From Thermoplasmatota archaeon (lineage in GTDB: Archaea; Thermoplasmatota; Penumbrarchaeia; Penumbrarchaeales; Penumbrarchaeaceae): a stretch of 64,000 nt of DNA. The notes under the pieces are model-generated. The model saw nothing but the letters and a program-made list of their open reading frames with translations. It was not told the DNA's origin and did not search any database. A program made the position numbers and the translations under genes. The stretch's first letter is position 1; the number at the start of each line of letters is the position of its first letter. Where the stretch lies: assembly GCA_029762535.1 (NCBI GenBank), contig JARVGK010000005.1, forward strand, positions 32,001-96,000, in the 5' to 3' direction. Of the stretch, positions 61,214 through 62,588 are shown piece by piece.

Positions 61214-61328
61214 ACCGGTCGGGACCTTTGGATCGAAGAGCGATTCAGATTATGATCTGGTCCAAAGATGTGGAAAATCGTCCAAATAACAACACAATTT
61301 CAGATTTTTCAACAGACCGGTCCACGAC
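61214..61328 (-). repeat. tRNA-Ala-linked structured unit B (distal to the IS), ending in a partial tRNA 3' copy
   Basis: Minus strand: GTGGACCGGTCT-GTTGAAAAATC..GATTTTCCAC-AT-CTTTGGA..TCCAAAGGT-CCCGACCGGT. Confidence 0.78.
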
Positions 61329-62319
61329 TGTAGAGTACGAATATTTTTTCGCAAGCCACTGTGACTCATCATGACATCCCCCAAAGTAGACCCAGAATGC
61401 TCCCTGGCTGGTTCTTTCTCCAGACAGCATCATCCGGACACTCACCGATTTCCAACCACAAAGCCCCATGCAACCTTCTATTATACCAGACTATGAATTC
61501 ATCCAAGGATCCAAATGTCCATCGATGCTTATCGTATTCCAGCCAGAACCGTTCCAACTTGCCATTCGTCTGAGGATTGTTTCTCCTTGAAGGAATATAT
61601 CGGATTCCCTTCTCGATCAACATAATCTGGAACTTCGAAAGACCGCCATGCACGTTGTAAAACTGGGTACCTCGATCGGTATTCACTTCACGGATGATCG
61701 CATTGTAAACCCTGGATCTATCCTCGGCTTGTTTGAACGTCCCAATGGAATGTTCCATAGTCGCCTCATTGAACTCCGCTCCAGCAAGGACGAACCTCGA
61801 TGCGTCATCTAGCCAGATTATCACATGAGGATGCTCTTCGGAAGTGCGATGCCAGTCACCATGAATAAGACTGAACGAATGCTCTCTCTCATATCTGCAT
61901 CTCCTCCTCTTTTTCTGTTTCTTGGGGTTCGGCATGGTATTGCCACTCTTGACCATGTAAGCGTGTATCTTGTGAAGCGGTATCTTGTTACCTTGGCTCT
62001 TCAGCTCATGAAATATCATCCTTGATCCAAATCGCTTCTCCTTCCAGGTATTGTCAATGAGCTCCTTTTCTTTTTGTGTAAGAGGGCTGGCCTTGGGCCT
62101 TCTGTTCTTCTTCAGCTTAGGGATCGTCCTTGTCTGGGTATATGAACGTACCACTTGCTCTACTCTCCTGACGGAAATGCCATAGATCTGTGCCACCTTG
62201 TTTTTGTCCCAGTCCTTGAGATCCACGATATGGCGGCACATCCATCGGATCTTCTTATCCGATAGTTTGGTCATTTCCCCGGAGTGTTCTTCATCGCGAA
62301 ATAATTTCTGTACTCTACA
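61329..62319 (-). mobile_element. IS481-family-like insertion sequence, 991 bp, with a 15-bp target-site duplication
   Basis: TGT..ACA ends; imperfect IRs TGTAGAGTACGAATATTTTTTCGC / TGTAGAGTACAGAAATTATTTCGC; AGACCGGTCCACGAC at 61314-61328 and 62320-62334. Confidence 0.92.
61369..62274 (-). CDS. DDE transposase (IS481/rve integrase core), 301 aa
   Basis: N-terminal HTH (VAQIYGISVRRV), HGDWH, LDDASR, TDRGTQF, NPQTNGKLER; ATG at 62274 lies inside the element. Confidence 0.92.
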   Translation of the reverse strand: MTKLSDKKIRWMCRHIVDLKDWDKNKVAQIYGISVRRVEQVVRSYTQTRTIPKLKKNRRPKASPLTQKEKELIDNTWKEKRFGSRMIFHELKSQGNKIPLHKIHAYMVKSGNTMPNPKKQKKRRRCRYEREHSFSLIHGDWHRTSEEHPHVIIWLDDASRFVLAGAEFNEATMEHSIGTFKQAEDRSRVYNAIIREVNTDRGTQFYNVHGGLSKFQIMLIEKGIRYIPSRRNNPQTNGKLERFWLEYDKHRWTFGSLDEFIVWYNRRLHGALWLEIGECPDDAVWRKNQPGSILGLLWGMS

Positions 62320-62355
62320 AGACCGGTCCACGACAAAAAATAATGAATAATTAAA

Positions 62356-62469
62356 GTGGACCGGTCGGGATTTGATGCATGAAAAATCCCTTTGGGATTT
62401 TCCGCATCCTTTGAACTCGACATTGTCGAGTTCTTCAGGAACCCAAGGGTTCAAATCCCTCCGGTCCAC
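62356..62469 (-). repeat. tRNA-Ala-linked structured unit A bounded by inverted tRNA 3'-end copies
   Basis: Outer IR GTGGACCGG(TC/A)GGGATTTGA; internal hairpins GAACCC/GGGTTC, GAACTCGAC/GTCGAGTTC, GGAAAATCCC/GGGATTTTTC. Confidence 0.88.
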
Positions 62470-62514
62470 GATACTATTTTAACTTCTTTTCGCTTACATT
62501 CAATAGTATAAGAG

Positions 62515-62588
62515 TGGACCGGTCGGGATTTGAACCCGAGGCCTCTCGCATGCCAAGCGAGCGATCTACCGGTCTGATCTACCGGCCC
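62515..62588 (-). tRNA. tRNA-Ala(GGC)
   Basis: GGGCCGG/CCGGTCC acceptor with G3:U70, CTCGC-TTGGCAT-GCGAG anticodon arm, GGTTCAAATCC T-arm. Confidence 0.96.

Follow-up and report, generated by a model that had tools for sequence, protein, structure and literature searches.

Tandem folded repeats ending in copies of the local tRNA gene in a Thermoplasmatota archaeon: candidate non-autonomous mobile DNA built like the tRNA-linked repeats of Escherichia coli

The genome of E. coli carries 22 tRNA-linked repeats (TLRs), distributed over ten loci, and the terminal 18-19 bp of each repeat are supplied by its local tRNA or rRNA; although known since 1978, they have remained without a known function (PMC8144298). 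tRNA genes also serve as targets for islands that tyrosine integrases insert at tRNA 3' ends, such as those of the SNJ2 type (PMC5861418; reviewed in PMC8371274), and each SNJ2 subgroup is tied to one att site (PMC5861418). In integrons, single-strand exchange that is resolved by replication is established (PMC4792948), while haloarchaea harbor SMRs, elements of ~110 bp with a strong target preference for which the enzyme is unknown (PMC3119063).

The archaeal units described here belong to a 2.96-Mb, 93%-complete genome of a Thermoplasmatota archaeon from sediment, DNA of which is present in metagenomes from mud, sediment, and volcano. One protein encoded in this genome has a relative in a MAG assigned to Thermoplasmatota. 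The window, a stretch of 64,000 nucleotides that was analysed as a whole, is contig C58 of this genome, and three tiny contigs (C71, C82, and C100), which have tRNAs unlike the remaining set and are likely contamination, were left out of the counts. At tRNA-Ala(GGC), two units, A and B, follow the tRNA gene (Table 1), and all parts that the preliminary description had listed for this locus are present in their places. The order that it gave, unit A, an insertion sequence (IS), and then unit B, stands, but the boundary between the last two does not, as B begins before the IS, which lies inside the antisense arm of B; similarly, unit B does end in a copy of the tRNA, albeit one cut to 11 nt. The IS481-like element is a later passenger that landed in this arm; unit B is uninterrupted at tRNA-Ala(UGC) on contig C14, and an IS-free joint across the insertion site is found in two other samples. 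The 15-bp target duplication of the IS481-like element is unusually long, and since short TGT..ACA hairpins occur at the same spot in relatives, this IS family may favor antisense arms. The possibility that the units are IS481 MITEs was rejected, given that the TGT..ACA terminal repeats are absent from both A and B and that the IS was inserted later. Contigs from four other runs cover the tRNA-Ala locus piecewise, and two low-support joints in these contigs, for which other organisms are a possible source, bypass the array. The succession of A and B is common to tRNA-Ala(GGC) and tRNA-Leu(UAA), as the preliminary description had recognized. Elsewhere in the window, the region 45501-46732 comprises tRNA-Cys and, after it, AT-rich DNA encoding a serine recombinase of 287 aa, which has a resolvase and a recombinase domain and falls short of the usual length; the tRNA-Cys end is not repeated anywhere in the window, and this recombinase could not be assigned as a partner enzyme of the units.

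Table 1. Parts of the tRNA-Ala(GGC) and tRNA-Leu(UAA) loci, numbered by position in the window
Feature	Position	Strand	Basis
tRNA-Leu(UAA), second family locus of the window	15556..15642	+	
Unit A at tRNA-Leu, predicted four-way junction	15674..15807	+	covariance-model match, E 3.8e-9
Unit B at tRNA-Leu	15808..15957	+	
Left half of a further unit A, degenerate	15958..16041	+	
tRNA-Ala(GGC), intact, without encoded CCA	62514..62588	-	
AT-rich spacer (long-arm loop) containing an inverted repeat of 8 bp	62470..62513	-	
Unit A, whole	62356..62469	-	
Unit A antisense arm, complement of tRNA positions ~51-74 across the insertion point	62447..62469	-	
Short loop and tRNA 51-54 copy (left flank of core), mini-hairpin	62441..62446	-	
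Core hairpin H1, variable sequence, covarying stem	62407..62440	-	
Core hairpin H2 (GGAAAATC..GATTTTTC), A-tract stem, 3-nt loop	62376..62406	-	
Exact 20-nt copy of tRNA-Ala positions 55-74, closing the predicted four-way junction	62356..62375	-	
Unit B AT-rich spacer	62335..62355	-	
Unit B antisense arm, doubling as the left-hand target duplication (15 bp) of the IS	62320..62334	-	
IS481-like insertion sequence of 991 bp, bounded by TGT..ACA and encoding a transposase at ~61369-62274	61329..62319	-	
Right-hand target duplication (15 bp) of the IS	61314..61328	-	
Unit B core, both hairpins	61225..61313	-	
Unit B hairpin H2, reversed relative to unit A, degenerate	61272..61310	-	
Unit B hairpin H1 (CTTTGG..CCAAAG), reverse orientation	61225..61267	-	
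tRNA-Ala positions 60-70 copy, truncated	61214..61224	-	

Relative to shuffled sequences, the fold of unit A at tRNA-Ala reaches a z of -8.2 with RNA parameters and -8.6 with DNA parameters. The computed fold is a four-way junction with a fully paired branch point, in which H2 adjoins H1 on one side and the tRNA copy on the other with zero unpaired bases between, and the copy of tRNA positions 51-54 base-pairs with the terminal part of the antisense arm. Among 14 A units, five yield a fully paired four-armed junction and one more is four-armed, while the others have three or four arms and a few free bases. A closed four-way junction without an unpaired base, as predicted here, has the shape of a Holliday junction, and within the tRNA units the antisense arm is computed to pair with both flanks of the insertion point.

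A comparable arrangement is found in E. coli. At each of the three TLR loci that were analysed, two of which match the Rfam family RtT, an antisense arm closes a multi-hairpin junction onto a tRNA copy that runs from position 59; the tyr units additionally retain the 5' half of the T-arm ahead of the core, and the TLRs have 3-nt GAA loops. Like the TLRs (the tyrT/tyrV 178-bp repeats, RtT), the archaeal units are tandem, non-coding, and terminated by the end of the local tRNA, and an antisense arm closing a multi-hairpin junction is a further shared trait, derived in this analysis. The label of an undescribed system, given to the units at first, is therefore too strong, as tailored 3' ends (PMC8144298), the antisense arm, and the junction are all shared with the E. 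coli repeats. Unlike the TLRs, the units reside in an archaeal host and show no sequence match in either direction: Rfam RF00391 had 0 matches in the host genome at E <= 1, and the archaeal covariance model R1 did not match the TLR loci. The junction lies at 54/55 or 59/60 in the archaeal units and at 58/59 in the TLRs, and a spread over at least 22 of 42 tRNAs, both core orientations, mirror arrays upstream of tRNA genes, and free cores in a protein gene are features of the archaeal family only. Because the architecture is shared in the absence of any sequence match, the archaeal units are built like TLRs without being members of RF00391. In an Rfam search only tRNA was matched, even at E <= 5, and searches of the openly accessible literature gave no description of such elements in archaea. 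In E. coli K-12, the repeats of the arg operon have the TLR fold and score below the Rfam RtT cut-off.

Within the host genome, downstream units that end in a copy of the gene's own 3' end are present at 22 of 42 tRNA genes (21 of the 41 scored, together with tRNA-Thr(GGU)), and partial units at approximately ten additional genes bring the total to ~30. The units stand in tandem, one to five per locus, at no fewer than 22 loci. Nine tRNA genes have mirror-image arrays upstream, in which copies of the tRNA 5' part are interrupted by hairpins and an antisense copy spanning the junction comes next. Association with tRNA genes is likewise apparent from the distribution of H2-type hairpins, 30 of 59 of which lie within 1.5 kb of a tRNA, in DNA amounting to ~4.5% of the genome, and from a covariance model of unit A, all 15 host-genome matches of which are at tRNA arrays, including two in an orphan array with tRNA-Trp ends. 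This orphan array is on a different contig, and an integrase fragment lies 3' of tRNA-Trp (C53 end, C102 start), where an island has probably displaced an older array. The array at tRNA-Met(CAU) (C29:1000-4300) encloses between its units 2.5 kb of cargo encoding a 702-aa His-rich protein that resembles a heavy-metal ATPase.

Among relatives, the unit A model matches 16 of 16 family genomes and both order genomes and, beyond the order, one further member of the class and two other members of the phylum out of 151 searched; 24 of 25 sampled matches in relatives are no more than 260 nt from a tRNA T-loop. Most families of the class show the architecture with different sequences, and at tRNA-Ala the type and number of units differ across genera, some of which have no units or an integrase instead. 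Pattern scans for units in viral sequences gave 0 matches, and a pattern designed for an autonomous version with genes of its own gave, in metagenomes, chance matches only; the T-arm signature pattern partly matched the reverse strand of tRNAs themselves.

The units are tailored to the tRNAs that they follow. Specifically, the tRNA copies start in the T-loop, are 15-22 nt long, and in 35 of 44 cases are exact relative to the local tRNA at positions 60-73, where the median difference between different tRNAs is 7. At base 57, the antisense arm agrees with the local tRNA in 32 of 33 cases (null 18, p 2e-4), and its match to this tRNA is tight near the junction and loose further out. Units at Val(GAC) and Val(UAC) are 98% identical and have one arm in common, while their direct copies differ and are local; judging from such sequences, the antisense arm appears to travel with the element over short times. 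Similarly, the cores at Glu(CUC) and in unit B of Leu(UAA) are 93% identical over 76 nt, suggesting that cores can move on their own, apart from units. The preliminary interpretation as a whole is partly supported by these data: a non-autonomous family tied to tRNAs, with shared cores, locally matched ends, genome-wide enrichment, and order-wide presence, is borne out, while its views of the mechanism, considered below, are not.

The core consists of two hairpins (~35-110 nt in all) placed in either orientation between two bases of the target strand, at T54/T55 or 59/60 of the T-arm copy and at other points in the upstream copies of 5' halves; a copy of the whole tRNA-Thr(GGU) has cores at 29/30 and 58/59. 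In unit A the insertion follows T54 on the sense strand and in unit B it follows position 60 on the antisense strand, these being mirror positions within the near-palindromic T-arm. The loop motif TTGACGA was observed 24 times against 1.4 expected, and the ratio of sense to antisense YGACG is 15:3 in A-class and 0:29 in B-class units, with H2 flipping alongside. The strand counts indicate a strand-specific core that occurs in either direction, and A and B are one core in opposite orientations. A universal duplicated TC with central GA, true in the host genome, was dropped as a defining feature because it fails in relatives and because the boundary of one insert in a gene is ambiguous. No bulge-helix-bulge was found at the junctions, which are abutting helices; for this reason, and because inserts in a gene keep the reading frame, archaeal tRNA introns and split tRNA were rejected.

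CCA is missing from 21 of 24 copies at genes that do not encode it, and the copies thus follow the tRNA gene rather than the mature tRNA. The suggestion that tRNA serves as a primer is contradicted by this finding and by the failure to detect a reverse transcriptase (RT) in the 93%-complete host genome. The same two observations weigh on the broader view that the units are retro-elements, the RNA of which would be reverse-transcribed from a primer provided either by tRNA at the antisense arm or by a nicked gene. While the complementarity of the arm to the tRNA 3' end recalls a primer-binding site, the tRNA-end duplications of 15-20 bp resemble those of target-primed insertion, and group II-type RTs are encoded in 6 of 23 family genomes, the presence of both orientations and of DNA-like stems also speaks against retro-elements, and we regard this as the least probable of the accounts considered.

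The evidence for DNA-like stems comes from the analysis of covariation and of mismatches. In ten units drawn from seven genomes, compensatory changes occur at 24 of 39 stem pairs, both sides having changed 66 times and only one side 7 times, although the controls for this covariation are generous, since the structure was derived from the ten aligned units themselves. The ratio of G-T to A-C among internal stem mismatches is 44:31 in the units versus 92:1 in tRNA stems (Fisher p 4e-12), the two sets of stems having been parsed by different methods, and the short hairpins mostly have 3-nt loops closed by C-G. The stems are thus DNA-like and devoid of the G-U bias of RNA. A family of tRNA-mimic RNAs with protein-binding stems, as once envisaged, is at odds with the missing excess of G-U over A-C and with the two core orientations, and the GAAAAT stem is not kept beyond close relatives. 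Also conceivable is a functional RNA within the trailer or leader of the pre-tRNA, tuning maturation or termination or excised as small RNAs (cf. RttR, RrA/B/F of E. coli), whose antisense arm would pair to one of two partners, the tRNA or its downstream copy. Consistent with such a role, the units are part of the transcription unit of the tRNA and terminate in a tRNA end that can be processed, covariation is strong, all 16 family genomes have units, and some E. coli TLRs are transcribed, processed, and bound by Hfq and CsrA (PMC8144298). We nonetheless consider it unlikely as the primary explanation, in view of the mismatch ratio and small C-G-closed loops, the occurrence of cores in both orientations and antisense inside a coding gene, and the free variation of unit type and number among genera. 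Mobility and a later role as RNA are not mutually exclusive.

The coding gene in question (C25:47600-48050) encodes a protein with calcium-binding repeats and contains four cores, in frame and antisense, the excision of which restores the repeats. All of these inserts keep the frame, implying that they are translated rather than spliced. Homologues in two relatives (G020 and G005) contain no core at the sites covered; in another (G015) three of the sites, and in a fourth (G003) one, are occupied by diverged cores, the stems of which are compensated. Cores at the same gene sites in two genera, with compensated stems, could point to function in place rather than mobility. Away from tRNAs, cores also form stacks in which they nest within each other (C25:48300-48900, C31:5350-5700, C6 end, and C4 end/C61 start); the stacks are preceded by a TATA-like box together with a short motif that is repeated and contains GGGGCCCC palindromes, and are possible master or donor loci. 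C25:40000-48300 holds three tandem paralogous gene pieces that have a repeat region in common and differ beyond it, much like a set of alternative C-terminal cassettes for one very large surface protein.

Palindromic elements of the Rickettsia type insert in frame into proteins, and the archaeal cores in the protein gene are similar in this regard. Other short, transposase-free palindromic repeats with nested and mosaic arrangements include REP/BIME with RAYT and the haloarchaeal PATEs and SMRs (PMC3119063). None of these four kinds, however, is tied to tRNA ends or equipped with an antisense arm that matches its target. Were the units REP/BIME-like mosaics spread by a domesticated HUH nuclease (RAYT/TnpA), the mosaic, nested, and tandem hairpin modules and the lack of a fixed target duplication would be accounted for; yet the Y1 HUH nuclease (PF01797) is present in 0 of 26 order genomes, nine of which are at least 90% complete, so that spread by a Y1 enzyme is largely refuted and the account as a whole is very improbable. 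PATEs of IS200/IS605, which rely on the same type of nuclease, are rejected on this count too. A search for Y2 HUH gave no match in the genome, nor did its controls.

The remaining candidates for the responsible enzyme are recombinases, and tyrosine recombinases of one kind or another, belonging to several patchy types, are encoded in 18 of 26 order genomes. The only full-length one of the host genome is integron-like (C25:100855-101655), scores below the family cut-off, and occurs in 7 of 23 family genomes. A short, catalytic-only tyrosine recombinase of ~240 aa, apparently lacking the N-terminal domain, is found in 7 of 23 family genomes other than the host and lies directly beside tRNA arrays in two of the seven. 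Neither tracks the arrays, and neither could be assigned as the partner enzyme. A XerA-like gene was not found with the query used in most order genomes and is present in other families of the class, and Hjc is encoded as a housekeeping gene. The sole Cas1 of the host genome adjoins cas2 and a CRISPR array, and Cas1 occurs in 5 of 26 order genomes; casposon derivatives were rejected on account of this CRISPR linkage and of unit ends that are derived from tRNA rather than being terminal inverted repeats. The single IS110, at C22, has no visible link to arrays. Accordingly, no enzyme tracking the arrays, be it an integrase, HUH nuclease, or RT, was found across order and family genomes. The units contain no ORF.

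The units share with tyrosine-integrase islands a duplication of the tRNA end from the T-loop, which leaves the gene intact, and accumulation in tandem, but differ from them in lacking an integrase, in a size of ~100-190 bp, and in being one family on many tRNAs; the antisense arm and four-way fold are undescribed for such islands. Could the units be shrunken scars of islands, shaped by crossover in the T-loop, correction of quasi-palindromes, and concerted evolution, and not mobile themselves? Copies beginning in the T-loop, like att duplications, integrase genes that adjoin tRNAs in relatives, and the one array with cargo would fit. A single architecture shared by over 20 distinct tRNAs, unrelated tRNAs with nearly identical cores, a right junction without an intact T-arm, cores that nest within one another or stand in a protein gene, and mirror arrays on 5' halves would not, and we judge scars to be quite unlikely.

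In light of these comparisons, the units are probably a mobile element at the level of DNA, although circles, excision, and gain or loss of units between strains were not seen, which counts against mobility. With regard to the kind of element, we lean, on balance, towards non-autonomous, mobile folded DNA of the tRNA-linked-repeat kind. A chemistry of one-strand exchange by a folded single strand in particular is advanced more tentatively, as one possible route. In such a scheme, the antisense arm would align and select the insertion site, and the folded single strand, or its circle, would join the target by exchange of one strand, to be resolved by replication as for integron attC cassettes (PMC4792948). 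Tandem arrays could then grow through repeated entry and unequal recombination, and selection would retain only insertions that leave the tRNA intact, the gene staying whole because the tRNA end is duplicated. As modelled, the units would thus be like attC cassettes (PMC2727003, PMC4792948) in having a folded single-strand site, one-strand exchange, and arrays, and unlike them in having no attI/integrase platform, no genes, a multi-branched instead of a rod-like fold, and a tRNA target. The enzyme would act in trans and would most likely be the tyrosine recombinase of a passing tRNA-targeting element, or else a host enzyme of strand exchange. The two insertion points in the T-loop are offset by 5 nt, and the usual offset for tyrosine recombinases is 6-8 nt, which counts against an enzyme of this type. 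Also counting against the scheme, a simple att crossover does not make both direct copies local when a unit moves from one tRNA to another, and target duplication or gene conversion would be needed. More doubtful is a unified class of self-guided elements spanning two domains of life, including both the TLRs and the Thermoplasmatota units, in which the arm would program insertion through a mimic of a Holliday junction recognized by one conserved enzyme of the host or acting in trans.

The origin and function of the E. coli TLRs have stayed open since 1978, and an archaeal order now supplies the same architecture; TLRs may be minimal mobile DNA, and the question becomes testable, in E. coli as well. 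If the arm guides insertion, the units would constitute a very small programmable integration system in which a new arm means a new target. Cores also add peptide loops to surface proteins. In practical terms, the arrays break assemblies at tRNAs and mimic att sites for island finders. With respect to annotation of the tRNA genes themselves, a tRNA-Ala called by ARAGORN at C28:20913-21030 fits tRNA-Lys(UUU) better, with an insertion of ~40 nt in the D-loop that is probably a non-canonical intron, and in one relative of the class (G035, C79:29600-31400) at least 11 tRNA genes form a dense cluster.
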